Below, in pieces: positions 597 through 17,904 of a stretch of 64,000 nucleotides of DNA (the first letter of the stretch is position 1; each line of letters starts with the position of its first letter). This DNA comes from Methanocella sp. (GTDB lineage Archaea > Thermoproteota > Bathyarchaeia > Bathyarchaeales > Bathycorpusculaceae). The notes below the pieces were generated by a model. The model saw nothing but the letters and a program-made list of their open reading frames with translations. It was not told the DNA's origin and ran no database searches. Location: the NCBI GenBank assembly GCA_050261115.1, contig JBLNCY010000006.1, positions 54,599 through 118,598 of the forward strand, in the 5' to 3' direction. Position numbers and translations under genes: made by a program.

Positions 597-701
597 GAGA
601 TTCTCTTCCACAGAACTTAGTTATCGCATATTAAGGTTAACACCCACAAAACTTGCAATACAACAAGCCGCGGGCACCCAGAACGCAACCTCCAAAGGAA
701 A

Positions 702-1205
702 TCAGTACACTGAAACTTTGGCAACGCCTGGAATCTTTAGCAACTCAGGAATGAGTTCACCGGGAATCTTTCTATCCACAATCAACGTACACTTCGGCTC
801 AGGCGACAATTCAGGGTCATCAACAATAGCTTGGCGTATGCCCAACCCCGCCTTGAACAGAACTTGGGTGGAATTGGCCAGAATGCCTCGCATTTGGGCG
901 CTATCGGGGGTGATCTCAATAACGCCTAGGTCGAGGTGTTTTGCGATTTCTTTTAGGCTGTGACCTGCGGGGCGGATCGCCTCAAAAATCATGCGCAACT
1001 CTGCATTCTCGTGAATAGAGGCAAGAGTTTCGTTGACGGTCCGGCGGTCGACGCCTGCAACTCGCGCAATGCGGATAGGGGGAATTTCGATTTGGTTTAG
1101 GTAGATTTCGCCGTCTTTGATCGATAGGCCGTTTTCTATAAGGACACGGGCCACTTTGAGGCGTTCTGGATAGCTGTCGAGGGCTGTTTTAATTTTATTC
1201 CACAT
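702..1205 (-). CDS. HTH + ACT-domain amino-acid metabolism regulator (COG2150-like)
   Basis: IARVAGVDRRTV HTH; C-terminal ACT-like GILA...IRQAIVDDPEL. Confidence 0.75.
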   Translation of the reverse strand: MWNKIKTALDSYPERLKVARVLIENGLSIKDGEIYLNQIEIPPIRIARVAGVDRRTVNETLASIHENAELRMIFEAIRPAGHSLKEIAKHLDLGVIEITPDSAQMRGILANSTQVLFKAGLGIRQAIVDDPELSPEPKCTLIVDRKIPGELIPELLKIPGVAKVSVY

Positions 1206-1345
1206 TTGGATCGCTTTTGTATATTTCTGTGCGTTTGAGTATAAATGTGTTGTTTACAAAACATGCTTCAATGCACATAAATGTACACTAAAGCTTTAAA
1301 TAAAACCTAAAAGAACAGTTCACTACCAAAGCAGGGCGAAAAAAC

Positions 1346-2767
1346 TTGCACGACAAAAAAATCCTACTCAAAGAAACAGACATACCAAAACAATGGTATA
1401 ACATTGTCCCCGACCTGCCACACCCGCTTCCCCCCTTTATAGAGGCGGAAACCGGAAAACCAGGCGTCGGCATCGTCCCAAAAATTTTCCCTAAAGCAAT
1501 AATCGGTCAAGAAGTCAGCCAAGAACGCTGGATAGACATCCCCGACGAGGTCCGAGAAATCTACAAAATATGGAGACCCAGTCCACTCTTCCGCGCCTAT
1601 GGCCTCGAGCAGGCACTAAAAACTCCCGCTAAAATCTACTACAAATACGAAGGTACCTCTCCTTCAGGCAGTCACAAAACCAACAGTGCCGTACCCCAAG
1701 CCTACTACAACATGAAAGAAGGCATCACCCGTGTCACCACCGAAACAGGCGCAGGACAATGGGGAAGCGCACTAAGCTTCGCAGCAAGCGTCTTTGGATT
1801 AGAAGCCACCGTCTACATGGTCCGCGCAAGCTTCGACCAGAAGCCCTATCGCAAAGCCATGATGAACGCATACGGCGCAACCGTCTACGCCAGCCCATCC
1901 AACAACACACAAGCAGGCAGAAAAATCCTAGCCGAAGACCCACAAACCAAAGGCAGCCTCGGCATCGCAATCAGCGAAGCAATAGAAGACAGCTTAGAAA
2001 GCGAAAAAACAGGTAAAAAAGCAAACTATACCATCGGATCAGTCTTCAACCACGTCTGCCTACACCAAACCGTCGCCGGACTCGAGGCACAGAAACAATT
2101 TGCCATGATTGACGATTACCCTGATGAGATTTATGGATGCATCGGAGGCGGCAGCAGCTTTAGCGGATTGTTCTGGCCCTTCTACTATGATAAAGTCTCT
2201 AAGAAAGCGCCAAAAGAAACCAAGTTCTTTGCCGTTGAACCCACAGCATGCCCCAAAGTCACAAGGGGATACTACACCTATGATCACGGTGACACATCAA
2301 AATTAACCCCGCTGGTACCGATGCACACCTTAGGCCATGACTTCATGCCTGCGCCTATCCATGCGGGCGGACTTCGCTACCACGGCATAGCCCCAACCAT
2401 CAGCGTACTCGCGCAGGAAAACAAAATCAGCACTATAGCCGTCAACCAAGTTGACGCCTTTGACGCTGCAAAAATGTTCATACGAAGCGAAGGCATCATA
2501 CCATCACCCGAGTCAACGCACGCCATCAAAGCCGTATGTGACCAAGCACGAGCATGCGCACAAACTAATACGCCTAAAACTTTGCTGTTCGCTTTGACGG
2601 GTCATGGTTTCTTTGACATGACCGCTTACGAGGAATACTTTAGCGGTAGACTGCAGCCCTATGAGTATCCAGCTGAGAAAGTGGCTGAATCCATGGAGAA
2701 GCTCCGCAAACTCTACCCGTGGCTAAACGATGTCACAAAACAGTACATAACACCCTGCAAGCAGTAA
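1346..2767 (+). CDS. trpB2: TrpB-like PLP enzyme (TrpB2)
   Basis: SGSHKTN PLP lysine, TETGAGQWG, GGGS, IHAGGLRYHG motifs. Confidence 0.93.
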   Translation: MHDKKILLKETDIPKQWYNIVPDLPHPLPPFIEAETGKPGVGIVPKIFPKAIIGQEVSQERWIDIPDEVREIYKIWRPSPLFRAYGLEQALKTPAKIYYKYEGTSPSGSHKTNSAVPQAYYNMKEGITRVTTETGAGQWGSALSFAASVFGLEATVYMVRASFDQKPYRKAMMNAYGATVYASPSNNTQAGRKILAEDPQTKGSLGIAISEAIEDSLESEKTGKKANYTIGSVFNHVCLHQTVAGLEAQKQFAMIDDYPDEIYGCIGGGSSFSGLFWPFYYDKVSKKAPKETKFFAVEPTACPKVTRGYYTYDHGDTSKLTPLVPMHTLGHDFMPAPIHAGGLRYHGIAPTISVLAQENKISTIAVNQVDAFDAAKMFIRSEGIIPSPESTHAIKAVCDQARACAQTNTPKTLLFALTGHGFFDMTAYEEYFSGRLQPYEYPAEKVAESMEKLRKLYPWLNDVTKQYITPCKQ

Positions 2768-3122
2768 CTTGCAACCCCCCACTATTCTTTTCCTTTTTGC
2801 TCTTTTCTAGTCCAGCATTAAATGCTATGATTTATCTACGCTTAACGACTTTCTAACGTTAACACGTAGTGGAATTTCATAAATGATAAATTGCAATTCG
2901 CCTTAAGAGGTTTTTATGCCAGCTCAAGGTAAGCCATTTCTTGTTGAGAGAAGGCCTGTTTTGTGCCGTTTAGGTATTCATAGCTGGGGGGCGCCGCATG
3001 TGTATGAACCTAATCAATAAGAGTGTGGATGGTTGGGAGAAGAGTTGCCGCCATTGTAACGCGGTCAGGCGTTGGATGCGACGTAAGAGTTACACTTACA
3101 AAGAATATGGGTGTAGTGGAAT

Positions 3123-4094
3123 TTAGACTACAAGGTCAGCCATGTCTACACTGCGCTCATAAATTTGCCGCAGAAACTGAACCACAGCCAAAATCTGAGG
3201 CAACAAATCCACCGAAGAATCCTTCACAGCCGCCTCAATTCGGGAACAGTTGTCATCGACCTTTCCCCTCATCTCACGAACATTTTCAGCTAGTGCGATA
3301 TCCTTACATAAAAAGGCCTTGAACGCTTGCTCATTGGCATCTACACAGGTTGACTGCAACGCCAGCACCAGTCTCCTAAGTTCATCGGATAGCTTAGTGT
3401 TCTTGAGTTCAAGCGTGCTCTGCGCAATCTGAACGCAGGCGTCACCTATACCCTCAATAAAGCCCGCAATAAGACGGTAGTCCACGCATTCAATAGGAAT
3501 GATACCTAGCTTCTCGCTAAGTCGGGGGCTCTGCAAAATAGTACGCAGTATCCTAACAAGCAAAAAATAGAATTTGTTGTTCTCTACATCACGTTCGATA
3601 ACGTTCTTTGCTAAGTCCATATCAGAAGAGACAAAACTGCTAGCCGCATCACGGATCATCCGCACGGCGCTAGCCTGGTTACGCTGCAGGATTTTTCCCG
3701 GTGAAGTGAAGGGTTGCTGCATAAGGCACTGAAGCGTCATCATTGAGGGGGTTTCCTCAACAATCATAAGCCCAGCTAGCGAGTTCGCAGTGGATTTGAT
3801 GAGGTTACGCATGTTTGAGTCGATGCGGTCTTTGGCTTCTATTTTTATGATATCATAACCTAAGAGGTAGCGGCCGATGATTTCGCGGCTCAAATAAGGA
3901 TTAACCTTTAACGACACAGATTTAGGTTCGGGTTCAGAGGCGAATTGAGTGTCTACAAACAGTTTACCATCGCTGGTTACTTCGAGGTTAACTTGGGAGC
4001 CCTTCTGCAAGTTATGGCTCTTAGCCCATTCACGGGGTAAACAAACAAAAAACGTGCCAGTGGGAGTCTGCTGAATTTTACGCACTTCACTCAT
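3123..4094 (-). CDS. phoU: AbrB-domain PhoU-family phosphate uptake regulator
   Basis: N-terminal RKIQQTPTGTFFVCLPREWA AbrB-like domain followed by helical PhoU repeats. Confidence 0.85.
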   Translation of the reverse strand: MSEVRKIQQTPTGTFFVCLPREWAKSHNLQKGSQVNLEVTSDGKLFVDTQFASEPEPKSVSLKVNPYLSREIIGRYLLGYDIIKIEAKDRIDSNMRNLIKSTANSLAGLMIVEETPSMMTLQCLMQQPFTSPGKILQRNQASAVRMIRDAASSFVSSDMDLAKNVIERDVENNKFYFLLVRILRTILQSPRLSEKLGIIPIECVDYRLIAGFIEGIGDACVQIAQSTLELKNTKLSDELRRLVLALQSTCVDANEQAFKAFLCKDIALAENVREMRGKVDDNCSRIEAAVKDSSVDLLPQILAVVQFLRQIYERSVDMADLVV

Positions 4095-4275
4095 AGAGAC
4101 ACCAAGTTATAACACATCTAAACAAACCTGTCCCTATATAAATCGTAAGCATCAGGTTACGTCAACCCGGCTAGTAAGCCATACCAACAAGTGTTTTAGG
4201 GCAATGAAAAACAGTAAATAACTCTAAGCCATACTGCCTAACCATCGGAAACATAGTAATCGGGCAGAAGAATGC

Positions 4276-5898
4276 ATGAGTAGGCAAGAGAAACTCCAAA
4301 AAGCCATCGAGGCAGCCATCATTGCCGGCTACCAACTAAACAGCGAAGCTTTTGAGTTCCTTACCCAAAATGTGGACACAATGGACCCCGAAGCCGTAAT
4401 GAATCTAGCATTAATGCAGTTATCTGACTTAGAGGATAAGCCCATCTTCATCGACCGAGATAGACTCGTGTCAGTTATTCATCAATTAGCAGTTGCAGAA
4501 ATGCAACAAGCCTTAGAAAACCAAACCGAAACACAACCAACCAATGAACCCAATCCAGTTAACATATTCCCGGAAGCACAAAGCTACACCGAGCCAACCA
4601 TAAACGCGGTCGATGCCAGCGACTACTTTTACCCCTACGCCAAAGACATATCCTCCGAGCTTATAATCATAGAAGACCCCACAGGTAAACTCACCTCAAA
4701 CGGAACAATACAAGAATACACAGCGCTCTTCCAAGACCGCTTCAGACGGGTCGAAAAAATACTCCGCAACCGCATGGATGTCCGCTCAGCCACACCGCTA
4801 GCCGAAGCGGTCAAATCCCAACCGAAATCAAAACTCAAAGTCATCTGCATGCTAACAGAAAAACGCGACAGCAAAAACAACACCATCCTCTCAGTTGAAG
4901 ACCCAAACAGCAGCGCCACCATCGTCATCCCCCACAAGGCACCTGAAGAAGTAAAAAAGAAGGCACTAACACTATTGCCCGACACCGTCTTTTGTGCGGC
5001 AGTCATCAAAACCCGAACCAATCTGCTCATGGCAGAAGACATTATCCTCCCAGAAGTCGGCCGAAAAGCACCTAAACGGGCCCAAGAACCTGTCTATGCA
5101 GTGCTGACTTCAGATGTACATGTAGGTAGCAATAAATTTACCAAAGATGCATTTCGCCGTTTCATTCTTTGGCTAAGAGGTAAGTATGGCACCCCACAAA
5201 TGCGTGAAGTCGCAGGCCGCGTCAAGTACCTCTTAATCGCAGGTGACATCGTCGACGGCGTAGGTATTTATCCCGGTCAACAAACAGAACTCACCATACG
5301 TGATGTACGCAAGCAATACAACTTTGCCATCAAATATCTAGAAAAAATACCCAGCTACATAGAAATCGTGCTCTCACCAGGCAACCACGACGCCGCGCGT
5401 AAATCCCAACCTCAGCCAGCCATCCCAGAAGGATACCTAACCGCAATCAAAGATAAACCAAACATTCACTCTGTTGGCAGCCCCTGCTACCTAAGCATAC
5501 ATGGCGTTGAAGTCTTGATGTATCACGGTGTAAGCCTAAATGACATCATAGGGGTAGTGCCGGGGATGGATAATGATCATCCTGAGAAGTCCATGAGGCT
5601 ACTTATGCAGGATCGCCACTTGGCACCTATGTATGGCGGTAAAACCATGCTTTCGCCTGAGAACCGCGACTATATGGTTGTCGAGCGAGTCCCCGACATC
5701 TTTCATGCGGGTCACATTCACGTTTTAGGCTACTGTAACTATCGGGGGGTACTTGTAGTTAATTCGGGGGGCTGGCAACTGCAGACTGAGTATATGGAAA
5801 AGTTAGGGCTGATGCCTACGCCTGGGAAGGTTCCTGTAATCAACTTGCAAACAATGGAGATTACGGTTCTGGATTTCCTAAACCCCATTGAGAGTTAG
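4276..5898 (+). CDS. polD1: DNA polymerase D small (proofreading) subunit DP1
   Basis: OB fold plus calcineurin-like motifs SDVHVGS, GDIVDG, PGNHD, HLAP, GHIH. Confidence 0.95.
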   Translation: MSRQEKLQKAIEAAIIAGYQLNSEAFEFLTQNVDTMDPEAVMNLALMQLSDLEDKPIFIDRDRLVSVIHQLAVAEMQQALENQTETQPTNEPNPVNIFPEAQSYTEPTINAVDASDYFYPYAKDISSELIIIEDPTGKLTSNGTIQEYTALFQDRFRRVEKILRNRMDVRSATPLAEAVKSQPKSKLKVICMLTEKRDSKNNTILSVEDPNSSATIVIPHKAPEEVKKKALTLLPDTVFCAAVIKTRTNLLMAEDIILPEVGRKAPKRAQEPVYAVLTSDVHVGSNKFTKDAFRRFILWLRGKYGTPQMREVAGRVKYLLIAGDIVDGVGIYPGQQTELTIRDVRKQYNFAIKYLEKIPSYIEIVLSPGNHDAARKSQPQPAIPEGYLTAIKDKPNIHSVGSPCYLSIHGVEVLMYHGVSLNDIIGVVPGMDNDHPEKSMRLLMQDRHLAPMYGGKTMLSPENRDYMVVERVPDIFHAGHIHVLGYCNYRGVLVVNSGGWQLQTEYMEKLGLMPTPGKVPVINLQTMEITVLDFLNPIES

Positions 5899-7118
5899 GT
5901 TTTGTGGAGGCTTTTTGGCTGATAATTTAGCAGAGGGCCAAAACGTGCGTCTGTACCAAATACATCTTTTATTAAGCCACGGCTAATTTCAAGACGAATC
6001 TTCTTAGTTCGCCCATACCGGCCCATGCTAACAACTTTGGCGTTGACAAGCCCCATAGAATCAAGCTCGTTTACAAGCGTTCCGAGGCGTCGCTGGGTAA
6101 GTAATCCTGCGCCCATTTCGCCACAGAGTTCATTGTATATGTCATAGATTTCTCCTGTGGATGCACTGTGCTTGTTGAGGTGATATACGCTTAGCAGGAC
6201 AAGTTTTGAGTGCAACGTCAAGTTTTTTAGAGCTTCGATTACACGGTTGTGTTCTATGTGTTTTTCAGCTTGGCGAACGTGTTCTTCTGTGATGGTGGTT
6301 GCACCGTTCCGTTCGGCTACTTCACCGGCTACTCTGAGCAGGTCTAGAGCTCTTCTGGCATCGCCATGCTCTGCTGCGGCCAAGGCTGCGGATATGCTAA
6401 GTGCAGACTCAGTCAAAGCACCATCCATAAATGCAAGCTTTGATCGTTCAAACAAAATATTTCGGAGTTCGCTTGCATCGTAGGGTCGGAATACGAGTTC
6501 TTCTTCACTTAAGGAGCTGAATACACGGGGGTCTAGGAATTCTTTTAGGCGGAGGTCGTTTGATATGCCGATGATTGAGACTTTGCTTTTGTTGAGTGTT
6601 TCGTTGATGCGGGTGAGTTCGTACATGAAGGCGTCGCCTCGGTCTTTTATGAGGGCATCTACCTCGTCTAGTACGATGATGAATATAATGTAAGATTGGT
6701 CTAGGCCTGAGCGGAATCTATCGAAAACTTCGCCGACTGACAACCCAGTAAAGGGAATGGATAGCCCAACACTTTGGCTAAGGGCGGCAAAAACGCGGTA
6801 TTCTGAACCGGTCATGCGGCAGTTTATGTAACAGAATTTTATTTGGGCCCCATACTCTTTGGCTTTTGATTCGAGGTGGCTAAGGACGTATTTGGCTACT
6901 GCGGTTTTTCCTGTGCCGGTTTTGCCGTAGATGAATATGTTTGAGCAGCGGGCATTTCTTAGTACAGGGGCTACTGTGGATCCTAGGAGTCGGATTTGTT
7001 CTTCTCGGTGGGGGAGCTTTTCTGGTAGATAGTCATGTCTTAGGACTTCGCGGTCTTTGAAGAGTCTTGGGCCTTTTACGAAATTGTCAAACACATCATC
7101 AAGTACAGAGTTTCCCAT
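5895..7118 (-). CDS. cdc6: Orc1/Cdc6 replication initiator
   Basis: LPHREEQI, Walker A GKTGTGKT, Walker B LDEVD, GDARRALDLL, C-terminal wHTH GRYGRTK. Confidence 0.97.
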   Translation of the reverse strand: MGNSVLDDVFDNFVKGPRLFKDREVLRHDYLPEKLPHREEQIRLLGSTVAPVLRNARCSNIFIYGKTGTGKTAVAKYVLSHLESKAKEYGAQIKFCYINCRMTGSEYRVFAALSQSVGLSIPFTGLSVGEVFDRFRSGLDQSYIIFIIVLDEVDALIKDRGDAFMYELTRINETLNKSKVSIIGISNDLRLKEFLDPRVFSSLSEEELVFRPYDASELRNILFERSKLAFMDGALTESALSISAALAAAEHGDARRALDLLRVAGEVAERNGATTITEEHVRQAEKHIEHNRVIEALKNLTLHSKLVLLSVYHLNKHSASTGEIYDIYNELCGEMGAGLLTQRRLGTLVNELDSMGLVNAKVVSMGRYGRTKKIRLEISRGLIKDVFGTDARFGPLLNYQPKSLHKT

Positions 7119-7149
7119 TGTTTGCCCACCCTATTTTTTTTCAGAGGTA

Positions 7150-7170
7150 CAACCGTTATTTCGAGTGGAA
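7150..7170 (-). promoter_or_regulatory. ORB-like box 1
   Basis: Minus strand TTCCACTCGAAATAACGGTTG resembles ORB TTCCAGTGGAAA-n-GGGG. Confidence 0.65.
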
Positions 7171-7269
7171 CAGATAAAGGCTACAGTACAAAAAAATGGT
7201 TTTGAACAACAACATTCCTAAAAGAAGACAAAAACAGGCAGAAACAACCTATCAACCCAAGGATAGACT

Positions 7270-7291
7270 CACCCGTTGATTTCTACTGGAA
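7270..7291 (-). promoter_or_regulatory. ORB-like box 2
   Basis: Minus strand TTCCAGTAGAAATCAACGGGTG. Confidence 0.75.
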
Positions 7292-7455
7292 AAATCAACT
7301 AACTTTACACTAACCCATATTATAGTATAACATAATAATATACTCTGAGTTGTAAATTAGCTTTGAATATATTAATGATTGTTGTCCAAAAAAATAGATA
7401 GACTCTCAGAAATTATTTTTCGACCGCTTCTCAACTTCTTTTTTCCCCTAAAACT

Positions 7456-7477
7456 CTCGAGAGGAAAAAGAGGGGTG
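7456..7477 (+). promoter_or_regulatory. ORB-like box 3
   Basis: CTCGAGAGGAAAAAGAGGGGTG with G-string. Confidence 0.7.
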
Positions 7478-7612
7478 CCTCTCTGATCTGAATTCCATGG
7501 AAGAAAGCTTGTAAGCTGTCCCTTTGCTTCAATATTTTGCCATGGCTTGCTTTGCTCCTTACCAAAGTTCGCCTAGTGACCTCTTGATTGCCAGGTTTGG
7601 GTGGCTTAGGGG

Positions 7613-7913
7613 TTCACAAAACTGTGAATACATGTGAAATAGCAATAAATCTGTAGCTTTATCAAGCTTCTTTTTCGGAGATTTACTTGTTTTCTGTCTG
7701 TTAACAGTGAATGTGGCACCCCTTGGCTTCTACTGGAGAACTCGATTTAAGCTGGAAAGATAAATCTTTTAACCGTTTGTTTTTCTGTGAAGCTTGTAAT
7801 TCTAAAAACAATTATAAAATAAGTTATTTACTGAAAATAAGCTTGAATTGGGCTTTTTATTTTGGCTGTTTTCACCATCACAGTTATATGCTGTGAAGCT
7901 GTAGAGTTGTGAA
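7613..7913. repeat. GTGAA/TTCAC motif cluster upstream of the 143-aa wHTH gene
   Basis: Copies at 7613, 7624, 7634, 7707, 7787, 7871, 7893, 7909. Confidence 0.75.
7717..7738 (-). promoter_or_regulatory. ORB-like box 4
   Basis: Minus strand CTCCAGTAGAAGCCAAGGGGTG with G-string, inverted relative to box 3. Confidence 0.75.
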
Positions 7914-7932
7914 CAACCTAGGTGTCTAATTA

Positions 7933-8364
7933 GTGCCGACTCGCAAAATGCGCGTGGAGCTCTTTGACAATGAGGGCAATCGGTATACCATTGCCTTTGA
8001 GGGTCAAGTGACCCGCGACAAAGCTCTACGCCTGCTTGATCTTGTTGAATTGCTAGGCGGCACACCGAATGAAACATCAAATATAACAAGTCCAGCAGTA
8101 CCCAGTCCTCGTCAACTGTCTCGTTTTGAGAAGGTTCAAGCAGTAATTCAGAAGAATTTCCCCTTAATCTGGTTCTCATCCAAAGACATTCAGGCAGTCT
8201 ATGAGCAGGAATTCAAAGAACCTGTCAGCCTAAGCACCATATCCACCTACCTCTCCAGAATGGCCTCAAAAGGCATGCTTATGCGCACTGGCACCTCCAA
8301 CAACCTCAAGTACAAGACTGCCCCAAACATTCCAGCGACAATCAAGCAGCGTATAATAAAGTAG
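7933..8364 (+). CDS. Uncharacterised origin-adjacent protein with C-terminal winged helix
   Basis: Small N-terminal beta-hairpin/helix domain, P/S/T linker, wHTH FSSKDIQAVYEQ...LSTISTYLSRMASKGMLMRTG. Confidence 0.8.
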   Translation: MPTRKMRVELFDNEGNRYTIAFEGQVTRDKALRLLDLVELLGGTPNETSNITSPAVPSPRQLSRFEKVQAVIQKNFPLIWFSSKDIQAVYEQEFKEPVSLSTISTYLSRMASKGMLMRTGTSNNLKYKTAPNIPATIKQRIIK

Positions 8365-8365
8365 C

Positions 8366-8411
8366 TTCACAAGCCCTTCACAACAGTTCACCACTGTTCA
8401 CAGGGTTCACA
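8366..8411. repeat. Five phased TTCAC direct repeats
   Basis: TTCAC at 8366, 8377, 8387, 8397, 8406 (spacing 11, 10, 10, 9). Confidence 0.9.
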
Positions 8412-8484
8412 ACATGCTTGTATTAGGTTGACGATTATTGGTAGCTGCCCATATTTTTTAGCATGCTATTTAGTTGAGTTGAGT

Positions 8485-8532
8485 TGCGTCTCTTGCTTTG
8501 CCAAGAGACCCCTCCTTATATATATAGAGTCA
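8485..8532 (+). repeat. Dispersed intergenic repeat, copy 1
   Basis: tgcgtctcttgctttgccaagagacccctccttatatatatagagtca; matches copies at 40610, 45314 and 62633. Confidence 0.8.
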
Positions 8533-8645
8533 ACCTCGGGTTGAACCTGGTCTTGAAAGCATACCTGCAAAAATACTAGCCTCACGGAACCCTTTAGTAG
8601 TAAAGCCCAGGAGACTGTCTATTTTGCAGTGGAAAATAAATTCGG

Positions 8646-9527
8646 CTAGGTTACGGCTGGCGAAGGCTCTGTCTTCTGCAGCAGGGCCTCCATCTCCTTT
8701 TTAATTGTATATCGGAACGGAATCTTACCAGCCTCCCTCTCCACATAACCTTCCTCATAAATCCTTTTCATCAACCTAGCCGTATGCTCCCTGCTCAAGC
8801 CAAGACGCTCTTTAATTTCCGGTGCAGTCTTAGCGCCCTCCTTAGAGAGCATCTCCAGCACTGCAATCTCTGTCTCGGTCAACGCTGCAAGAGCCTTGTC
8901 ACGTTTGATAGGAACAACCGGAAGCGCCATTTCACTTCGAGCCTCTATTGGAGCCGGCGGGGCAGTAGCTAACTTTTGGAGTTGTTCTTCCAACATAGCA
9001 ATTTTTTGTTGCATGGCTTGCTGGGCATTTTGTGCCTCTTGGAGTTTTGCTTGGAGGGTTGCCATTTCGTTTGTGAGCTCTGATTTTAGGGTTGTATTGT
9101 TTTGTGTGATTTCTGCCAAGTTTGCTGTGACGTCCTGGGTTAGAGTTTGATGTATTTGGTTAAGGGCGATGATCTGGGTTTCCAAGGGGTCGATTAGGTT
9201 CTCTAGCCGTTCGGCCTTTCGGTAGCTGGCTTCTGCGGTGGAGTAGCTGCCCTCAACTCTTGTCACCATATTATCAAATTTTTCTGATTGACGTTTTAAT
9301 TCACGGTTAAAACTAAGCACTATATCGCCCAAGAAATCTTTGGCTTTAGCGTATTCTTGTAGGCTCTGTTCATATTGTAGATGAGTTTTTGCGTATTCCT
9401 GCTGGGTTAGCTCATATACTCGGTGAACTTTGCGGATTTGACGGTAGTATTCATATCCTGCTATTGCTGTGACAGCTAATAGCACGCCAAAGATTACTAC
9501 TGTTAGGTCAACCGTGATGCTCTCCAC
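8646..9527 (-). CDS. Membrane-anchored coiled-coil protein with C-terminal MarR-like winged helix
   Basis: N-terminal hydrophobic helix LTVVIFGVLLAVTAIAGY, ~160 aa Q/E/L/K-rich heptads, APPAP linker, wHTH LTETEIAVLEML...TAPEIKERLGLSREHTARLMKRIYEEGYVER. Confidence 0.85.
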   Translation of the reverse strand: MESITVDLTVVIFGVLLAVTAIAGYEYYRQIRKVHRVYELTQQEYAKTHLQYEQSLQEYAKAKDFLGDIVLSFNRELKRQSEKFDNMVTRVEGSYSTAEASYRKAERLENLIDPLETQIIALNQIHQTLTQDVTANLAEITQNNTTLKSELTNEMATLQAKLQEAQNAQQAMQQKIAMLEEQLQKLATAPPAPIEARSEMALPVVPIKRDKALAALTETEIAVLEMLSKEGAKTAPEIKERLGLSREHTARLMKRIYEEGYVEREAGKIPFRYTIKKEMEALLQKTEPSPAVT

Positions 9528-9867
9528 CTGTGATTTTTTCGTGATTCAACCGTGATTGTCACGTGATTATGATGATTTGTGATGATTACATGTGACATTA
9601 ACAGTTGCGTCACATATCACAAGTATCTCCATGGAAATTTAAGCCTATCGGTGACATTTTTCCATGAATTCATGACGTCACACATCACGGAAAACCGAAT
9701 TAATGCTTCTGTGATATCTATCCTTGGTTAAAGAGGCTTAATTTAAGCTTATTTTGTCGAAATAACTGTTATATTGGAGCTTGTGTGATGTGTGATAAAC
9801 TACCCCAAAATAGTGCAAAAATAATGGAAAAATTCGTGATTTGTGACGTCACAAAGGCTCTTGTGAT
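9514..9867. repeat. Dense GTGAY/RTCAC motif array
   Basis: 20 copies counted in ~355 bp; 11-bp phased run at 9530/9541/9552/9563; 12-mer GTGATNTGTGAY at 9609(-), 9677(-), 9785, 9836; palindrome TTTGTGACGTCACAAA at 9840-9855. Confidence 0.9.
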
Positions 9868-10346
9868 GGGCTAGAAAGCCGTTTTAGGCTTGTTTCGAGC
9901 TCATTTCTGATGATTTCTATGACTTTTGCATGGTCTTTTAGTTCCTCTTCCTTGCTGGGTAGGTTAGAGTGTGCGTCGACATAATCGTGCAGTTTATTGG
10001 CTATTTCTAAGTACGGGTCAAGAGTTGTGGTCTCAAAAACGCCCAAATAACCTAAAAGAAGTACTGTGTAAATGGATTTTATGACGTTTTCTCTGGACTG
10101 TTTTAAAGTCCTATTAAACGAACCGCGGCTTATTTTAGCCCTTGTTAGGCGTAAGGCTGCTTTTTCATCGTATTTTAGCTCTTTGCCTGCTATATTTTCC
10201 GATAAAATGTCAATGAGTAGCGTTTCGAGCTGTGTTTTTGTTAATTGGCTGTTTTTAGCCAGTATTTGTACAATAGGGTCTTTTAATGCTCCGTTTAACC
10301 ATGCTGTAACGCCGTCTTTTAGCTTCAAATCTCGTGATTCCTCCAT
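9849..10346 (-). CDS. Uncharacterised HTH-containing protein
   Basis: LTKTQLETLL...ISRGSFNRTLKQSRENV resembles a sigma-4/Bat-type HTH, followed by helical C-terminus. Confidence 0.7.
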   Translation of the reverse strand: MEESRDLKLKDGVTAWLNGALKDPIVQILAKNSQLTKTQLETLLIDILSENIAGKELKYDEKAALRLTRAKISRGSFNRTLKQSRENVIKSIYTVLLLGYLGVFETTTLDPYLEIANKLHDYVDAHSNLPSKEEELKDHAKVIEIIRNELETSLKRLSSPSQEPL

Positions 10347-10718
10347 ACCTTAAATGGATACAGTTTTGTATACCCACTCGGGTTTTTATCCTTTCGAAGC
10401 CCTCCTGACCCCAAAAACCGCTTGTTAAAGCAGATAAATTAGCCGTAAAAATGCAAATAACGCCTAAAAATTGAATTATTATTAAAAACAACGCTAAATT
10501 GGTACAGTTAACATAATAACGACTAAATCCTCGGTAATTTTATCGCTAAAAATGCCTGAACTTTACACAAAAAATGCACTTTTGCAAACGCCCACAACCC
10601 GCTAACCTCACCAGTTTTAACATACTCAGCACAATTAAACACACTTTTCAACCCCTAATCTAGCACCAAAACACATTTTTAGAAACCCAGCTCACAGTTC
10701 ACAATCCCGAAAAACCAC

Positions 10719-10791
10719 GTGATATCACCAAAAAATGCGTGATTTTAGCCTTAAACCACTTGATATCACAGCGTTGTGATGCACCTGTGAT
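10719..10791. repeat. Second GTGAT/ATCAC cluster
   Basis: Six copies (10719, 10724-, 10739, 10765-, 10776, 10787) including palindrome GTGATATCAC. Confidence 0.8.
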
Positions 10792-10826
10792 GCCCAAATA
10801 CCCATGGAGAACTTGTGGCATTCACT

Positions 10827-11660
10827 CTAAATCTGCTCAGACAACCGCCTTAGCTGGTCATAAAGCTCTGGGCGAAGGTCCCGTAAGGTCGGAATAAAGG
10901 TCTCAGCAGTACGCAAATCGCCAAAATCAACCTCACAAAACACAAAATCCTCCTCATCATACCTTGCCCTAGCTAAAACGTCCCCTGTTGGGCTCACAAC
11001 GCGGCTTCCACCCCAAAACTGCAAGCCATCCTCAACGCCTGCAAGGTTAACGTAGGCTAAATAGCAAGTGTTTTCCAAGGCCCGTGCCGCGGTAAGAACC
11101 TCAAAGTAGCTTCTGCGTACCGCTGGCGAAGCAGAAATGCAAATTATGAGTTGAGCCCCCTTCAGTCGGGATAGCCGAAAGACTTCGGGGAAGAAAACAT
11201 CATAGCAGATGGTTAGGCCGATGTTGCCGAGTTCAGTTTGGAAGGCGGCTGGTTCATATCCGGGCCGAAAATAGCGTTTCTCCTCAAACACGCTATGCGT
11301 TGGAAGATACATCTTGCGGTACTTGCCAATAAAGCCGTTTGGTCCCACTAGGACGGCGGTATTATAGATTGTCGCTTGGGTCTTCTCGCTTAGCTCTGGT
11401 AACCCAAAGACGATGTGTATGCCTGTTTTCTTAGCTATCTCTTCAACTTTCGCTGTGCTAGGTCCGGGGACTGGTTCGGCTAGCGTGTACACTTGGTCTC
11501 GCAGTACATAGCCGGTAAGGCACATTTCAGGGAAAACAGCCAAGTCCACGCCCTCGGCTTTTGCCCTCTGGGTTAATTCTTCGATTTTTGCTAGGTTTGC
11601 GTTTTTGTTTTCTCGTTGGGGTGCGATTTGGCAGAGGGCAAGCTTGATTCTGGCTTTCAT
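10827..11660 (-). CDS. Carbon-nitrogen hydrolase (nitrilase family)
   Basis: E-K-C triad in FPE, YRK and ICYD; probable start MKARIKLAL at 11660. Confidence 0.9.
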   Translation of the reverse strand: MKARIKLALCQIAPQRENKNANLAKIEELTQRAKAEGVDLAVFPEMCLTGYVLRDQVYTLAEPVPGPSTAKVEEIAKKTGIHIVFGLPELSEKTQATIYNTAVLVGPNGFIGKYRKMYLPTHSVFEEKRYFRPGYEPAAFQTELGNIGLTICYDVFFPEVFRLSRLKGAQLIICISASPAVRRSYFEVLTAARALENTCYLAYVNLAGVEDGLQFWGGSRVVSPTGDVLARARYDEEDFVFCEVDFGDLRTAETFIPTLRDLRPELYDQLRRLSEQI

Positions 11661-11670
11661 GCTATTCCCT

Positions 11671-12513
11671 TTAGTATGTGTGTCTGGGTAGCCTAAAATC
11701 GTTTCCCGGAGTTCTAAACCCCAGTTTAGGTGACAGCGGCGTGCGCCGTTTATGCTCGGTTGCAAGGATGCGGGCTTGGACGCGATCAACGATTGCCTGT
11801 TCTATGTTTAGTTGCTCAGCGATTTCTTGTGGTTTCATGAACCGTTCTAGGCCGTAGAGAATCAAATCCAGCGTTTCGTATTTGATTTCGAGTTCTCCCT
11901 CTGCGGTTTGGTTTGGCCAAAGCGAGGGGGTTGCGGGTTTGAGCGCGAGTTCCTTTGGAATTCCAACGTGCATGGCTAGCCGTCGGACTTGGGTTTTGTA
12001 GAGGTCGATGATGGGTGTGATGTCTGCTGCGGCGTCACCCCATTTGGTAAAGTAGCCCATGTAGGTCTCGGACTTGTCTGAGGTGCCCGCGACGATTCGG
12101 CTTTGGTTATTTGCGTAGTAGTAGAGAATTATCATGCGGGTGCGGGCTTTGATGTTTCCTTTGCAGAGCCGCTCAGTTGGGTTGAATTCTGGAATACCCT
12201 TGTAGAATTCCTCAAGGATACTGCTCATATTCACGGTTTGGGTTTGAAGGTGGAATAGGTCAGCTATGGTTTTTGCGTCGTCGAGGTCTTGCTGCCGAAA
12301 AGTTTCCTTCTCAGGCATTATGAGGGCTAGCACGTTTTCTCCTCCGATGGCAAGGCTTGAGAGTGCGGCTGTGACGGCGCTATCCACACCGCCTGAGAGA
12401 CCCAGCACGATGCCTTTGGCGTCTGCGTTTTCTACGTATTCTTTGATAAAGCGGCAGATGCGGTTTTGCACTTCAGAGAAGTCGAGTTCCAATACTTGGG
12501 GGGTTAACTTCAA
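11671..12513 (-). CDS. nadE: NAD+ synthetase (synthetase domain only)
   Basis: GLSGGVDS, NIKARTRM, GYFTKWGD, KTQV motifs. Confidence 0.95.
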   Translation of the reverse strand: MKLTPQVLELDFSEVQNRICRFIKEYVENADAKGIVLGLSGGVDSAVTAALSSLAIGGENVLALIMPEKETFRQQDLDDAKTIADLFHLQTQTVNMSSILEEFYKGIPEFNPTERLCKGNIKARTRMIILYYYANNQSRIVAGTSDKSETYMGYFTKWGDAAADITPIIDLYKTQVRRLAMHVGIPKELALKPATPSLWPNQTAEGELEIKYETLDLILYGLERFMKPQEIAEQLNIEQAIVDRVQARILATEHKRRTPLSPKLGFRTPGNDFRLPRHTY

Positions 12514-12607
12514 GGTTTAGGCAGCCTCACTGTGAAGGTTAGTAGGCAAGTATTTAAGCAGAAGGATAAATATTAATGACTACATCCAAAACTATGAAGG
12601 AAAATTT

Positions 12608-12877
12608 ATGGGGCGAAGAAGGAAAAAAGTAGTTCATGTTCCAAAGAAAAAGTTACCAAAGTTCTTCTCTTGCCCTAGGTGTGGTAAAGCAACCGTCCGA
12701 GTAGAAATCAATCGTGAGGAAGGCGGACGGGCCGTTGCACAATGTAGTAGCTGCGGACTTAGGGAAGAATTCACAGTAAAATCCGCACAAGGCGAAGTTG
12801 ATGTTTACTGCATGCTAACGGATAGAGTCTACGCTAATTTAAAGCGGACTCCCATAACTAAGGCTAAAGAAGAATAA
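12608..12877 (+). CDS. elf1: Transcription elongation factor Elf1-like zinc ribbon
   Basis: MGRRRKK, FSCPRC...CSSCG...EVDVYC. Confidence 0.85.
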   Translation: MGRRRKKVVHVPKKKLPKFFSCPRCGKATVRVEINREEGGRAVAQCSSCGLREEFTVKSAQGEVDVYCMLTDRVYANLKRTPITKAKEE

Positions 12878-12892
12878 ACTGACGGATGCTCA

Positions 12893-13645
12893 ATGGCTGG
12901 GCCCATAGAACGGTACTTGCTCGACAAAATCAAGGTCGATGGCTCAATCCATATGACGCTCATTGACCCCGAAAAAGTAACCGCAGAGGAAGCAGCAAGT
13001 ATCGCCCAAAGCGCCAGCAACAGCGGAACCGCAGCCATAATGATTGGCGGCTCAACGGTATCCTCCCAGAAGCAACTCGATGAAGTAGTTCAAGCGATAA
13101 AAGCCGCGGTGGCGACGCCGACGATTCTTTTTCCAGGCAACGTCAACGGGATTAGCAGAAACGCTGACGCCATCTGGTTTATGTCGATGCTGAACTCCAC
13201 CGACCCCTACTTTTTGATGGGCGCCCAAATCATAGGCGCACCATACATAAAAAAATTCAACATCGAACCCCTATCAATGGGCTATATAATTGTGGGTGAC
13301 GGCGGCACAGTGGGTAAAGTCGGTAAAGCCATCCCTATTTCGTATAGCAACCCTGAGCTAGCCGTGGCACATGCCCTTGCAGGTCAATACTTGGGCATGC
13401 GCTTTATCTATCTTGAAGGCGGCTCAGGCGTAAAGGTTCCTGTCCCCACAGATATGATTCGCGCGGTTAAGCAGACAATTGATATCCCCTTAATCGTCGG
13501 AGGCGGCATTCGTACCCCTGAGGCTGCAGCGGTCGCGGCTGATGCAGGAGCCGACATCATCGTCACAGGTAACCTCATCGAAACAAGCGAAGGCACCCAA
13601 CGAGTGGCCCAGATAGTCAAGGCCATCAAACACAGACGCGCTTAA
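12893..13645 (+). CDS. Geranylgeranylglyceryl phosphate synthase (PcrB family)
   Basis: TLIDPEK, IGGS, LFPG, YLEGGSG, VGGGIR motifs. Confidence 0.93.
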   Translation: MAGPIERYLLDKIKVDGSIHMTLIDPEKVTAEEAASIAQSASNSGTAAIMIGGSTVSSQKQLDEVVQAIKAAVATPTILFPGNVNGISRNADAIWFMSMLNSTDPYFLMGAQIIGAPYIKKFNIEPLSMGYIIVGDGGTVGKVGKAIPISYSNPELAVAHALAGQYLGMRFIYLEGGSGVKVPVPTDMIRAVKQTIDIPLIVGGGIRTPEAAAVAADAGADIIVTGNLIETSEGTQRVAQIVKAIKHRRA

Positions 13646-13717
13646 GTTCTTTTGTGATTTGTTTTCGAAAGCCCAAAATACCCTTTAGTCATTACTGTTG
13701 GGCAGTGACGCGGCAAC

Positions 13718-16700
13718 TTGAACATCAACCAGGGCATAAGTAAAAGCTACCGATCCTACGTCGAGGGCTTGGAGGCAGAACTCAAGCACCTCTATGAAAT
13801 CAGCGACGCCGCCAGATCCCTAGGCTTAGACCCCGCCCTAAAAACCGAATGCTTGGTTGCACAGGACATAGCTGACCTCGTAGAGGGTCTAGTGGGACCC
13901 ACAGGCGTCGCAGTCAGCATCCGCGAACTCAGCAAAAAAATGCCCCGCGAAGAAATCGCCTTCTATGCCGCCAAAGAGATTGCAGAGGGCAAATTCGCCC
14001 AAACCGACGAAGAGCGCCAACCTGAACAGCTAGCAGAGCAAGCTATTCGGACGGCACTGGCCATTTTTACCGAAGGCTTAACCGCCGCTCCCATCCAGGG
14101 CATTGCGCATGTGAAGATTAAGAAGAACGCTGACCAGACACGATATTTAGCGGTTTACTTCGCAGGACCAATCCGCTCTGCTGGCGGAACAGACCAAGCC
14201 CTAACTCTGGTCGTTGCCGACTACGTAAGGCGCGCCTTGGGGTTGGATGTGTATAAGCCCACCGAAGAAGAAGTCTCCCGCTTCATAGAGGAGCTTCGAC
14301 TCTACGAGCGCAGTGTAGGCCGCTTCCAGTACCACATTCCCGATGAGGAACTCCGCAAGGCACTCAACATCGTCCCCGTCGAATGCACGGGCACCGAATC
14401 CGACCCCGTCGAAGTCTCCTCCTACCGCAACCTGGACCGCGTGGAAACTAACCGCGTCCGGGGCGGCGCCCTAAGAGTCATTAACGACGGCATTGTAGGC
14501 CGGGCCCAGAAAGTCTGGGTTGTCTGCGACAAAATCGGTTTTCATGAATGGGATTGGCTTAAGAATTTTAAAAAGAAGTCTGAGAAGAAATCCGCGGGCT
14601 TCATGGATGATGTCATCGCTGGTCGCCCCATTTTCGCTTTTCCCTCCACCCGGGGCGGCTTTAGACTTCGATATGGCCGCTCACGCAACACAGGCCTCTC
14701 CGCGGTGGGTATCCACCCTGCCACTATGGCTGTTGTGGAGGGGTTTTTGGCTGCTGGAACACAGATGCGTCTAGAGTTGCCCGGCAAAGGCGGCGTCACC
14801 CTGCCAGTAGATTACATAGAAGAGCCCGTGGTGCTGCTCAAAGATAACTCTGTTGTCCGCGTCTCCCTAACAAAGCTGCCAGATGTCAAAGGCAAAATCG
14901 CAAAAATCCTCTTTCTAGGAGACATGCTTATCGACTTTGGCGACTTCCTCTACAGTAACAAAACCCTAATTCCCTCTGGCTATGTGGAGGAATGGTACTG
15001 CCAAGACCTCAACAACGCGGTACTGTCCCTCTTTGGCGGCGATTTAGAGAAGGCTGCGGAGGCTTGCGGCCTCTCATCTAAGCGCCTAGATGCCCTTATC
15101 CATGACCCTTTCAAGAACAAACCCAACATCAAAGAGGCATCTGCGCTCTGTCGAGCCCTCGGCGTTCCACTGGCGCCTAACTGCCTACATTACTGGAGTA
15201 ATCTGGCAACCGTTGCAGAGGTTGAGTTGATGCGTAAGTGGCTAGCTAGCTGTGATGTCACCGAAGCAGACGACGTGGGTTGCAGGATCACAGGCGCCGC
15301 AGGCAACGATGTTGTTACGGCTCTGCGGAAGGCCTTCATACCTCACAAGTACCTCGAGGGCAAAGTTACTATCCAGGGTCAAGATGCTGCCTCGTTTGCG
15401 TTCACGCTTGGGTATGGATCGTCAGGGCTAACTGAGCCGTTCCAAGCAGAAACCGTGCTCGAATTGTTGTCCAAGACCTCTGGCGTAATGATCAAGGATA
15501 AGGCTCCAACGTATGTGGGTGGACGTATGGGGCGTCCTGAGAAAGCCAAGCACCGTGATATGCGTCCTTTGGTGCATGTGCTTTTTCCTGTGGGGCTTGC
15601 AGGTGGTAGTCACCGTGATCTCTGTGCTGCAGCTAAAAAAAGCGCCGTGTTTGTTGAGATGGTTAAACGCAAATGCCCCGAATGCAAAACTTACACTATA
15701 AAACTCAAATGTGACGCTTGCGGTGTACCGACAATTCAGGAAAAAACTTGCCCCCGATGCGGCCGTTCTTTAAAGGATAGCTACTGCGGGTCATGTAAAG
15801 CTGACGCGGTTCTCTATCAGCGTCAACCCGTTAATTTTAAGCACCTCATCGATGGTGCATGCGCTACTCTTGGTTGTTCCCCGCCCAAGATGCTTAGAGG
15901 CGTAAAAGGCTTAACAAACCTTGACAAAACCCCCGAGATGCTCGAGAAAGGGATACTGCGCGCCAAGTACGGGGTTTCAACCTACAAAGATGGCACAACT
16001 CGCTTCGACGGTACCAACGCCCCCCTTACCCATATCACTCCTGAAGAAATCGGCGTCTCTGTTGAGAAGATGCATCAGATGGGCTACCACTATGACACGC
16101 ATGGCTTGCCATTAACTCACCCTTCTCAGGTTTGTGAACTTAAAATCCAAGACGTCGTCATCCCCCGAAAAGCAGGCGACTATCTCCTCCGCGTCGCAGG
16201 GTTTGTCGATGAGTTGCTTGAGAAAGTCTACAAGCTCCCACCCTACTACAAAGCCACCAAACCCGAAGACATGGTGGGTCAGCTTATCTTTGGGCTTGCC
16301 CCTCACACCTGCGCCTGCATCCTTGGCCGTATCGTAGGCTACACAGATCGCAACCTCATCTATGCGCATCCAGTTTGGCACTCTGCTAAACGCCGAGACT
16401 GCGACGGCGACGAAGACGCCATTATGCTAGCGTTAGATACGCTTTTGAATTTTTCAAAGGTTTTCTTACCTAGCCAAATCGGCGGTATCATGGATGCTCC
16501 TATCCTTATGTTGCCTTTCTGCAATACCAGGGAGGTTCAGCGTCAGGCCCACGACTTTGACGTTAGCCAAATTTACCCAGTGGAGTTCTATCGTAAAACT
16601 TGGGAGAAAGGCGAATCCCGTACCGTAAGTGCCGTTATGGATGTAATTAGCCACCGTCTTGGTACTGAGGGCCAATTTGAGGGTTACCAGTTCACTGTGC

Positions 16701-17149
16701 CCACCACCAACATCAACTTGGGTAACGCTAATAGTAGCTACAAAGAGTTCAAGTCCATGACCGATAAACTCAACATGCAGTTGGGGCTAGCTGAAAAGAT
16801 TGAAGCCGTCGACGCTAGGCGCGTGGCGCTTAAGGTTCTCAACTGCCACCTGATGCGTGACATTGCTGGCAACATGCGCGCTTTTTCCACCCAAGGGTTC
16901 CGATGCAAATCATGTAACGGGAAATACCGGCGTCTTCCCCTTGCGGGTAAATGTACTCGCTGCGGTGGAGAGTTGACATTGACTGTCTACCGGGGAAACA
17001 TTGAGAAATACCTCAAAGCCGCCCACAACCTAGTCGATAAGTATGGCCTGCCAAACTATTACACGCAACGTATGGATCTTATTCAGGAGGAAATCACCCT
17101 TATGTTTGATAACAAGAAGCCTAAACAAACCAAGCTTTTCGACTTTTAA
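13718..17149 (+). CDS. polD2: DNA polymerase D large subunit DP2
   Basis: AGPIRSAGGT, GGFRLRYGRSRNTG, RMGRPEKA, AKRRDCDGDED, zinc fingers. Confidence 0.97.
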   Translation: MNINQGISKSYRSYVEGLEAELKHLYEISDAARSLGLDPALKTECLVAQDIADLVEGLVGPTGVAVSIRELSKKMPREEIAFYAAKEIAEGKFAQTDEERQPEQLAEQAIRTALAIFTEGLTAAPIQGIAHVKIKKNADQTRYLAVYFAGPIRSAGGTDQALTLVVADYVRRALGLDVYKPTEEEVSRFIEELRLYERSVGRFQYHIPDEELRKALNIVPVECTGTESDPVEVSSYRNLDRVETNRVRGGALRVINDGIVGRAQKVWVVCDKIGFHEWDWLKNFKKKSEKKSAGFMDDVIAGRPIFAFPSTRGGFRLRYGRSRNTGLSAVGIHPATMAVVEGFLAAGTQMRLELPGKGGVTLPVDYIEEPVVLLKDNSVVRVSLTKLPDVKGKIAKILFLGDMLIDFGDFLYSNKTLIPSGYVEEWYCQDLNNAVLSLFGGDLEKAAEACGLSSKRLDALIHDPFKNKPNIKEASALCRALGVPLAPNCLHYWSNLATVAEVELMRKWLASCDVTEADDVGCRITGAAGNDVVTALRKAFIPHKYLEGKVTIQGQDAASFAFTLGYGSSGLTEPFQAETVLELLSKTSGVMIKDKAPTYVGGRMGRPEKAKHRDMRPLVHVLFPVGLAGGSHRDLCAAAKKSAVFVEMVKRKCPECKTYTIKLKCDACGVPTIQEKTCPRCGRSLKDSYCGSCKADAVLYQRQPVNFKHLIDGACATLGCSPPKMLRGVKGLTNLDKTPEMLEKGILRAKYGVSTYKDGTTRFDGTNAPLTHITPEEIGVSVEKMHQMGYHYDTHGLPLTHPSQVCELKIQDVVIPRKAGDYLLRVAGFVDELLEKVYKLPPYYKATKPEDMVGQLIFGLAPHTCACILGRIVGYTDRNLIYAHPVWHSAKRRDCDGDEDAIMLALDTLLNFSKVFLPSQIGGIMDAPILMLPFCNTREVQRQAHDFDVSQIYPVEFYRKTWEKGESRTVSAVMDVISHRLGTEGQFEGYQFTVPTTNINLGNANSSYKEFKSMTDKLNMQLGLAEKIEAVDARRVALKVLNCHLMRDIAGNMRAFSTQGFRCKSCNGKYRRLPLAGKCTRCGGELTLTVYRGNIEKYLKAAHNLVDKYGLPNYYTQRMDLIQEEITLMFDNKKPKQTKLFDF

Positions 17150-17248
17150 TGGCTAAACCTTTTCAATGATAACACACCTTAATCAGTTCGGTGACGTGGT
17201 ATCAGGCAAACTTGGCACCCCAACGCATACCTCAAAACAGTTCGTAAC

Positions 17249-17461
17249 GTGCGTAGCGGTCTTGCTGCAAGAACTAAAATCCTGATGCTTCTTGACTTGC
17301 AGGGGTTGGGTGCAGGCAAAATCTCCAAGGAATCAAAGCTTAGTTACAAAGTAGTGATGTACCACTTGCGGCTGCTGAGGGCTGAGGGTACTGTGGAGCG
17401 CCATGGCGATCGTCGCTATGTTTGGTTGTCGAGTGGGCTTGGGCAGACACGACTATCTTAG
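17249..17461 (+). CDS. Small ArsR-like wHTH protein (true start may be upstream)
   Basis: ARTKILMLL...LSYKVVMYHLRLLRAEGTVER; frame open back to 17195. Confidence 0.7.
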   Translation: MRSGLAARTKILMLLDLQGLGAGKISKESKLSYKVVMYHLRLLRAEGTVERHGDRRYVWLSSGLGQTRLS

Positions 17462-17745: not shown

Positions 17746-17904
17746 ATGATTCATCTGGAAAACTTTGGCTAGCCGCCATAATTAAAGGTTAAACCCTGGA
17801 AAAGTTTGTTTGGTTTATGCTTTTGTATACAGACGGTGATTTTAGCTAGCAAGCTGTAAACAACAGATAAATAATCACAGTCTTAAACCTACACTTGATA
17901 GATT

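Follow-up and report, generated by a model that had tools for sequence, protein, structure and literature searches.

A genome-unique, deeply conserved GTGAY array near the likely replication origin of a Bathyarchaeia genome is a predicted protein-docking site

Plasmid centromeres of the R1 parC/ParR type carry phased short repeats around the promoter of the partition operon, and the protein that binds these repeats autoregulates the operon. RacA and Noc of Bacillus are tethers that link the origin to the membrane. The accessible part of a recent preprint describes for Staphylococcus aureus the RicO/ricS system, in which a DNA-binding domain and an amphipathic helix go together with a motif near the origin (bioRxiv 10.64898/2026.03.06.710092), and the UBP/ucm system of Sulfolobales origins is described, in the part of the report that was available, as an 11-bp AT-rich motif in the unwinding element with more than 300 genomic sites (PMC12141716). 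The mechanism of DNA segregation in archaea is not understood, according to the available part of a 2024 review, and for the Bathyarchaeia, which are abundant and uncultured, there is next to no work on gene regulation or on chromosome biology. Here we analyse a 64-kb stretch (the window) of Methanocella sp., placed by GTDB in the Bathyarchaeia (assembly GCA_050261115.1, contig JBLNCY010000006.1, positions 54,599 to 118,598). A first-pass annotation of this DNA had pointed to an array of GTGAY pentamers and their reverse complement RTCAC at 9514-9867, which lies between the genes of a 293-aa protein (p293, 8646-9527, minus strand) and a 165-aa protein (p165, 9849-10346, minus strand). We find that the array is real, genome-unique, structured and deeply conserved, and predict that it is a protein-docking site. 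This defines a cis-element with a precise grammar, a probable membrane-anchored reader (p293) and a conserved gene cluster, orc1/cdc6-oriC-p143-p293-p165.

Compared with these systems and with the MarR/TrmB regulators, the locus shares single features with each. Residues 216-275 of p293 pass the cut-offs of both Pfam MarR (31.5 bits, cut-off 24.6) and TrmB (30.6 bits, cut-off 25.6), and, as for regulators of this kind, palindromic boxes lie in the gene's own upstream region. However, the match covers the winged-helix core only, not a full MarR dimer fold with dimerisation helices N- and C-terminal to it; this core is C-terminal, behind a membrane helix and a coiled coil of about 170 aa, there are 7-20 half-sites with three-half-site composites instead of one or two palindromes, and a conserved site also stands at the 3′ end of the neighbouring gene, p165. 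The likeness to the R1 type lies in 11-bp phased repeats that flank an AT-rich, promoter-like core, with a four-box 11-bp run at the p293 promoter and an 11-bp spacing peak in 80 related loci, and in a reader that would likewise autoregulate, whereas the array is chromosomal and class-wide, and its candidate reader is a winged helix, not a ribbon-helix-helix protein. No partition motor NTPase (ParA/SegA, ParM or TubZ) was found among the neighbouring open reading frames (ORFs), and a ParA-like search gave eight CbiA-family matches in the genome, all on other contigs, which does not decide on a SegA-type partner. As far as the UBP/ucm report could be compared, both cases have an archaeal sequence-specific protein at or near oriC (for p293, binding is predicted), but the GTGAY boxes occur at one locus, outside the spacer with the origin recognition boxes (ORBs) and the unwinding element, and follow another motif and another logic. 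Like RicO, as the preprint's accessible part presents it, p293 is predicted to unite a DNA-binding domain and a membrane-targeting element in one protein, with a specific motif near the origin; unlike p293, RicO has an amphipathic helix and another domain order, and the array sites form one 1.3-kb cluster. The RicO, RacA and Noc families did not appear in the general Pfam and NCBIfam match lists, in which no direct comparison with them was made. In its presumed working the array resembles the multi-operator region of a winged-helix regulator, and in its layout a plasmid parC, but the locus is not a case of the MarR family proper, of an archaeal origin, of iterons or of a known partition system.

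The first-pass annotation had counted 20 GTGAY/RTCAC pentamers in 9514-9867, and a direct count gave the same number, 14 GTGAY on the plus strand and 6 RTCAC. A pyrimidine directly precedes the box in 19 of the 20, which makes YGTGAY the unit of the array. On average, the window holds 1.07 boxes per 354 bp and its runner-up stretch holds 6; for the genome assembly (2.15 Mb, 94.85% complete, 66 contigs) the mean is 0.93 and the densest place outside the array has 7. The k-mer enrichment that had been proposed as a check is borne out, since a third-order Markov model of the genome expects 0.93 boxes and dinucleotide-preserving shuffles of the array region (n = 5000) gave 2.66 ± 1.49, with a maximum of 11 and none reaching 20. 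The genome's 11-bp pairs (4/4), its 11-bp triplets (2/2) and its single 17-mer composite all lie in the array locus, and four of the 13 genomic copies of GTGAYNNGTGAY are in the array. It is barely credible that low complexity, coding sequence, an RNA element or faulty assembly accounts for the array. Codons can indeed yield GTGAY-rich stretches, as happens inside the hypF genes of two related loci (L069, L073), but the array region is non-coding except at both ends, the shuffles exclude an effect of composition, boxes stand on both strands and more than 100 independent assemblies conserve the array. An Rfam scan of 6500-12000 at E ≤ 1 gave no match, and a transfer RNA scan of 1-20000 gave no gene.

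The array is built of distinguishable parts. Its promoter-proximal half-sites (9514-9596, plus strand) comprise boxes at 9514 (inside the p293 coding sequence), 9530, 9541, 9552, 9563, 9579 and 9592, with one on the minus strand at 9558; the strict 11-bp run at 9530, 9541, 9552 and 9563 is present as first reported. In an alignment of 24 loci of the genus, the phased cGTGATt boxes that adjoin the p293 start number two to six. Box A (9606-9621, minus strand; gttgcRTCACayATCACa) is almost invariant in 24/24 loci and is followed by a TATA-like CTTAAATTT (9635-9643, minus strand), a candidate p293 promoter element of which the 'ttaag' columns are conserved, and by a lone GTGAC box (9651-9655, plus strand) that is retained in most loci. 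Box B (9673-9689, minus strand) is the composite aTGAC-GTCAC-ac-ATCAC, with the consensus atgayRTCACacATCACa, and is conserved in 24/24 loci. Beyond the AT-rich core (9714-9774, dG -68.3), which contains a conserved aagcttatttt at 9745-9755 and may be a distal promoter or a terminator zone, lie a tandem GTGATgtGTGAT (9785-9796, plus strand) and box C (9836-9855, plus strand; GTGAT-tt-GTGAC-GTCAC; alignment consensus for 9836-9853 GTGATttGTGACGTCACa). Box C is the most conserved element of all (80/80 further genus loci) and includes the perfect 16-bp palindrome TTTGTGACGTCACAAA at 9840-9855, which, as had been noted, spans the p165 stop codon (9849-9851). Boxes B and C form an inverted pair of 17 nt, 94% complementary and 145 nt apart. 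The 12-mer GTGATNTGTGAY occurs where it was first seen, at 9785 and 9836 on the plus strand and at 9609 and 9677 on the minus strand. Of the symmetry about the AT-rich core that had been read from these copies, the opposite orientations of boxes A and B on one side and box C on the other hold and are conserved, whereas the tandem at 9785/9792 is specific to this genome and is missing from the other 23 aligned loci. Upstream of p165, the 480-bp spacer 10347-10826 contains a second GTGAY array of six boxes (10719-10791; boxes at 10719, 10724, 10739, 10765, 10776 and 10787), with the palindrome GTGATATCAC and one 11-bp pair. Both arrays together have 26 half-sites across 1.3 kb.

Conservation in relatives, which had been named as a check, holds at the level of the genus and of the order. 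In the genus alignment, boxes A, B and C are almost invariant while the spacers drift, as in a textbook footprint. In each of 80 more loci of the genus, the stretch downstream of p165 contains 10-20 boxes, where 0.61 per 361 bp is the background level; the zone upstream of p165 has 7-16 boxes in the same 80 loci, and the 17-mer composite is present in all of them. Successive same-strand boxes in these loci peak at spacings of 7 bp (255 cases) and 11 bp (111, plus 26 at 10 bp), and those of the upstream array peak at 11 bp (149, plus 40 at 10 bp), so that the claim of a structured array with a grammar of its own extends beyond this genome. The conserved core is the three-half-site composite GTGAY-RTCAC-N2-RTCAC, together with half-sites spaced by 7 and 11 bp. 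Among 36 order-level loci, 35 could be measured (L021 stops before p293), and of these, 34 show 7-20 boxes in the p165-p293 interval. The composite also stands at equivalent places in other families of the order. The spacer to the third half-site varies with the lineage, being N2 in this order, N4 in one family (f30) and part of another (f34), and N5 in a further one (f24). The order of genes cdc6-p143-p293-p165 is kept across the order, and the same four-gene cluster is also found in other classes of the phylum (L093-L099).

The presence of the boxes was compared with that of the neighbouring genes in a sample of 151 genomes of the class, in which p293 was scored by its winged helix and a loose form of the composite allowed a spacer of N2-6. 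The exact 17-mer composite occurs in 52 genomes (reversed control, 0) and adjoins p165 in 14/14 genomes compared; the loose composite occurs in 102 (control, 7) and the p293 winged helix in 109. Both p293 and the loose composite are present in 99 genomes, p293 only in 10, the box only in 3 and neither in 39, a cross-table that overstates the support because the genomes are kin, the pattern at the level of families being fairer. At this level, none of the 28 genomes of nine families that lack p293 has a box. In four of the p293-less families (f14, f23, f26 and f27), p165 is present in 16 of 18 genomes, and the seven loci fetched from them (out of eight p293-less loci in all) each contain p165, five with p143, and at most 4 boxes per 300 bp. 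Across the sampled genomes, then, the boxes track p293, and not p165 or p143.

The first-pass annotation had named both the 165-aa and the 293-aa protein as possible binders, and the phyletic pattern favours the latter, as p165 is not tracked by the boxes. The rival reading, in which p165 or p143 binds the boxes and the array is an operator that controls p293 and p165, is in our view unlikely, although p165 has some claim to it. The two arrays flank its gene, box C overlaps its stop codon, and the protein is helical, with a confidently modelled helix-turn-helix (HTH) of the sigma-70-region-4/LuxR/Tfx type and a nearly invariant recognition helix. The model built from a 98-sequence alignment has a mean predicted local distance difference test (pLDDT) value of 90.1 (an earlier one from 20 sequences, at 53.6, was too poor for use), and its residues 32-99 superpose on HTHs of this type with Z values of 6.8-7.4, which are middling yet consistent among themselves, and root-mean-square deviations (rmsd) of 1.3-2.8 over 52-64 residues. 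The match to the Tfx-family protein EnfR (8hno_A; Z 6.9, rmsd 1.3, 52 residues, 29% identity) is of interest for this rival, as EnfR binds a pseudo-palindrome as a dimer according to the available part of its description (PMC10570040); as far as that part goes, p165 differs in an extra N-terminal helix and in a C-terminal helical hairpin in place of the alpha+beta head of EnfR. For p165, no Pfam or NCBIfam family was found, searches of PDB sequences with its profiles gave nothing meaningful, and Foldseek with the good model gave no match at E ≤ 0.001; PHROGs and PADLOC gave nothing for p165 or p143. Against binding by these two proteins, both occur in families without boxes and have the same conserved helices there, and p143 is found with or without the array. 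Moreover, p165 has a distinct conserved palindrome of its own, GGATACAgtttTGTATAC (10356-10373), just upstream of its start. This palindrome has the form ATACA-N4-5-TGTAT, is kept 5′ of p165 throughout the class, with or without p293 (also in L067-L086 and L095-L097), and may be the operator of p165 itself or an RNA hairpin in its 5′ leader. Since p165 and p143 keep their helices, and p165 its palindrome, in lineages with and without p293, it is p293 that the boxes follow. p165 is single-copy in 37/41 relatives and was found in 126/151 sampled genomes of the class; p143 and p165 are both uncharacterised, near-universal small proteins of DNA-binding appearance beside the origin.

p293 is arranged, from the N-terminus, as a membrane anchor, a coiled coil of about 170 aa, a Pro-rich linker and the MarR/TrmB winged helix. 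A hydrophobic 19-mer followed by a K/R-rich stretch is present at the N-terminus in 23/23 relatives, and this stretch after the membrane helix predicts a cytoplasmic C-terminus. An alignment of 23 sequences shows no variation at R246, E247, H248 and R251, while T249 and A250 stand in 90% or more of its rows. The motif REH(T/V/I)(A/S)R is retained in p293 homologues of other classes of the phylum, and GTGAT/ATCAC boxes precede the genes there as well, with 8 in about 220 bp in L093 and 6-7 in L094 and L098. Judged by these sequences, the putative reading motif of p293 and the GTGAY word are deeply co-conserved. Against PHROGs and PADLOC, p293 showed no more than generic similarities, to coiled coils or winged helices.

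We lean towards the view that the array is a multivalent operator array for p293 that docks its winged helix, controls the p293 promoter and marks the p165 gene. The analysis shows enrichment, a grammar, conservation, uniqueness within the genome and co-occurrence with p293; who binds, the multivalency and the regulatory outcome are inferred from sequence patterns. In such a model, each winged helix of p293 would read one YGTGAY half-site. The coiled coil, assumed to make p293 at least dimeric, would let the oligomer gain affinity by filling several half-sites together, and the flexible linker would let the heads reach neighbouring half-sites. An invariant half-site whose number, orientation and spacing vary with the lineage would be accounted for by the model, which also accommodates 5-bp palindromes (on opposite faces of the helix), the 7-bp tandems and the 11-bp runs (same face). 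Cooperative binding on the same face may reasonably be expected from the 11-bp phasing. Occupancy of the boxes would repress or tune the promoter of p293 itself, as the boxes cover its presumed promoter, start and leader, and, with box C and the second array bracketing p165, p293 may in addition stop transcription that reads through from p165, or draw the p165 gene into a loop. If regulation of itself and its neighbour were the whole role, the locus would offer a clean and testable model of multivalent operator recognition in archaea.

The RNA data fit this layout loosely. Metatranscriptome contigs over p293 stop at 9516 (X2), 9580 (X1), 9582 (X4) and 9603 (X5); X1 and X2 are from one sample, so that these are three studies, and contig ends give a weak hint at most. 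They hint at a p293 transcription start close to box A; the phased boxes would then fall in the 5′ leader, and box B upstream. With the TATA-like CTTAAATTT, this would be a classical repressor layout, if the contig ends are taken as a guide. Contigs over p165 span 9892-10299. The intervals 9604-9891 and 10300-10788 are uncovered, a gap which proves nothing about co-transcription of p165 and p293. Separately, RNA contigs of X1, X4 and X5 carry a C>T change at 9520, a strain variant in the first p293 codons.

The first-pass annotation had also put forward simple promoter autoregulation. The array does sit where autoregulation of p293 is possible, but three loci of the class (L069, L073 and L084), in which hypF lies between p165 and p293, exclude it as the whole role. 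In these loci the composite stays at the 3′ end of p165, between convergent genes, and roughly one box is kept at the p293 promoter, directly behind the A-rich, TATA-like ggataaaaaagc; therefore, autoregulation is not all that the array does. The hypF coding sequence itself can mimic a GTGAY array and is a trap for density scans: the dense 'arrays' inside hypF (L069:5328-5457 and L073:5370-5499) were rejected, being made up of conserved codons for I-T, V-I, C-D and H-H.

Several observations weigh against an operator array read by p293. The hypF insertion in the three loci just named separates the composite from p293, and L032, the exception among the measurable order-level loci, is almost without a p165-p293 spacer and has no box between the two genes. 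The loose composite is missing from ten of the 109 p293 genomes and occurs in three of the 42 without p293; among these box-only exceptions, at least the box of G052 sits at a contig end. p165 and p143 are likewise predicted DNA binders with conserved recognition helices. The start site of p293 is placed by contig ends only. Finally, the distant p293 homologues L098 and L099 seem to be without a membrane helix, so the anchor is not universal.

Where present, the anchor opens a further reading. A membrane-anchored p293 would hold any bound DNA at the membrane, and on this basis the array may be an origin-proximal membrane tether or a centromere-like site, at which p293 keeps the oriC region at the envelope for origin segregation, positioning or control of replication, autoregulation being a by-product. 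As a single-pass membrane protein, p293 would bridge to the chromosome by its long coiled coil and clamp both arrays beside oriC, in analogy to RicO or RacA. This extends the operator reading and is, in our estimate, possible but doubtful. It draws on the uniqueness of the site in the genome, on its distance of 2.4 kb from cdc6 (the array lies in the cdc6 cluster in many lineages) and its nearness to the spacer with the ORBs, and on the number of half-sites, 26 within 1.3 kb and phased at 11 bp, which is seemingly more than a simple repressor needs. In p293 itself, the DNA-binding domain is joined through a long coiled coil to a membrane anchor, and in the loci with an inserted hypF the composite is still found at the 3′ end of p165, where no promoter lies. 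A bacterial protein of like logic, RicO, is described in the accessible part of its preprint (bioRxiv 10.64898/2026.03.06.710092), and archaeal segregation is called poorly understood in what was available of the 2024 review. On the other side, neither a motor nor a partner gene was found in the locus, the sites crowd into 1.3 kb instead of spreading over an origin domain, some p293 homologues seem to lack the anchor, and p293 and the boxes are both absent from four families that have p165 and p143, so that the function would be dispensable. Were the tether real, p293 would be, as far as we found, the first anchor of this kind to be described for archaea, in Bathyarchaeia and related Thermoproteota. 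Literature searches on the origins of Bathyarchaeia, on membrane tethers in archaea and on cdc6 clusters of Nitrosopumilus turned up no description of the array or of p293, and full-text searches for the array palindromes together with archaea returned unrelated primer matches only.

The position of the origin bears on the last alternative, that the array serves as a second origin of replication or as an iteron-type unwinding element, the latter having been suggested by the first-pass annotation. The orc1/cdc6 initiator gene (5895-7118, minus strand; Pfam Cdc6_lid 7e-24, Cdc6_C 7e-24, AAA domains) is separated from the p143 gene (7933-8364, plus strand), which encodes a small conserved protein with a C-terminal winged-helix-like region, by an AT-rich spacer (7119-7932). 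In a scan of the window, the ORB-like repeats CACCCnTTGnnTTCTACTGGA were found only in this spacer, at 7270-7290 and 7717-7737 (2 matches, 0.03 expected), and none inside the array. The least stable 60-mer of the window (7317-7377, dG -60.8) lies between them, the third-ranked minimum (7780-7840) is in the same spacer, and an ORB-like (C)ACCCC-N5-6-TTCYACTGGA recurs in the cdc6-p143 spacer of relatives throughout the class. The cumulative GC skew along the 118-kb contig has a broad plateau and did not locate an origin. Judging from these elements, the origin is likely to be the cdc6-p143 spacer, about 1.6-2.5 kb from the array, and not the array. A second origin at the array is highly improbable: repeats do flank an AT-rich core close to cdc6, but the predicted instability of this core, which had been proposed as a check, ranks 11th among the non-overlapping minima of the window and is ordinary for intergenic DNA, and the boxes are missing in families that keep cdc6, p143 and p165. 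With the ORB repeats and the least stable DNA both in the cdc6-p143 spacer, the idea of a second unwinding site is unsupported. Nor are the repeats of the plasmid-iteron type, which are direct repeats of about 17-22 bp in one orientation beside a Rep gene; those of the array are half-sites of 5-6 bp in both orientations, and no Rep-like gene adjoins the array among the neighbouring ORFs.

Some minor observations concern the surroundings and single boxes elsewhere. A nitrilase-family gene (from 10827, minus strand) follows the 480-bp spacer upstream of p165. Within that spacer, 10500-10595 contains the conserved blocks cagttaacataa...ggctaaat and aactttacacaaaaaatgcacttttgcaaa, which have no Rfam match and may belong to an unannotated small gene or to a promoter. 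A cluster of 7 boxes including GTCACATCACGTGACATCAC lies at L067:6169-6240, 1.7 kb from p165, in a genome in which a p293 query found nothing, and no p293-like ORF was seen near the cluster. GTGAYRTCAC palindromes number six in the G000 genome, roughly the level of chance, and a lone GTGACGTCACAAAGGC in that genome (contig C53:31923) is intergenic and shares 16 nt with box C and its flank.

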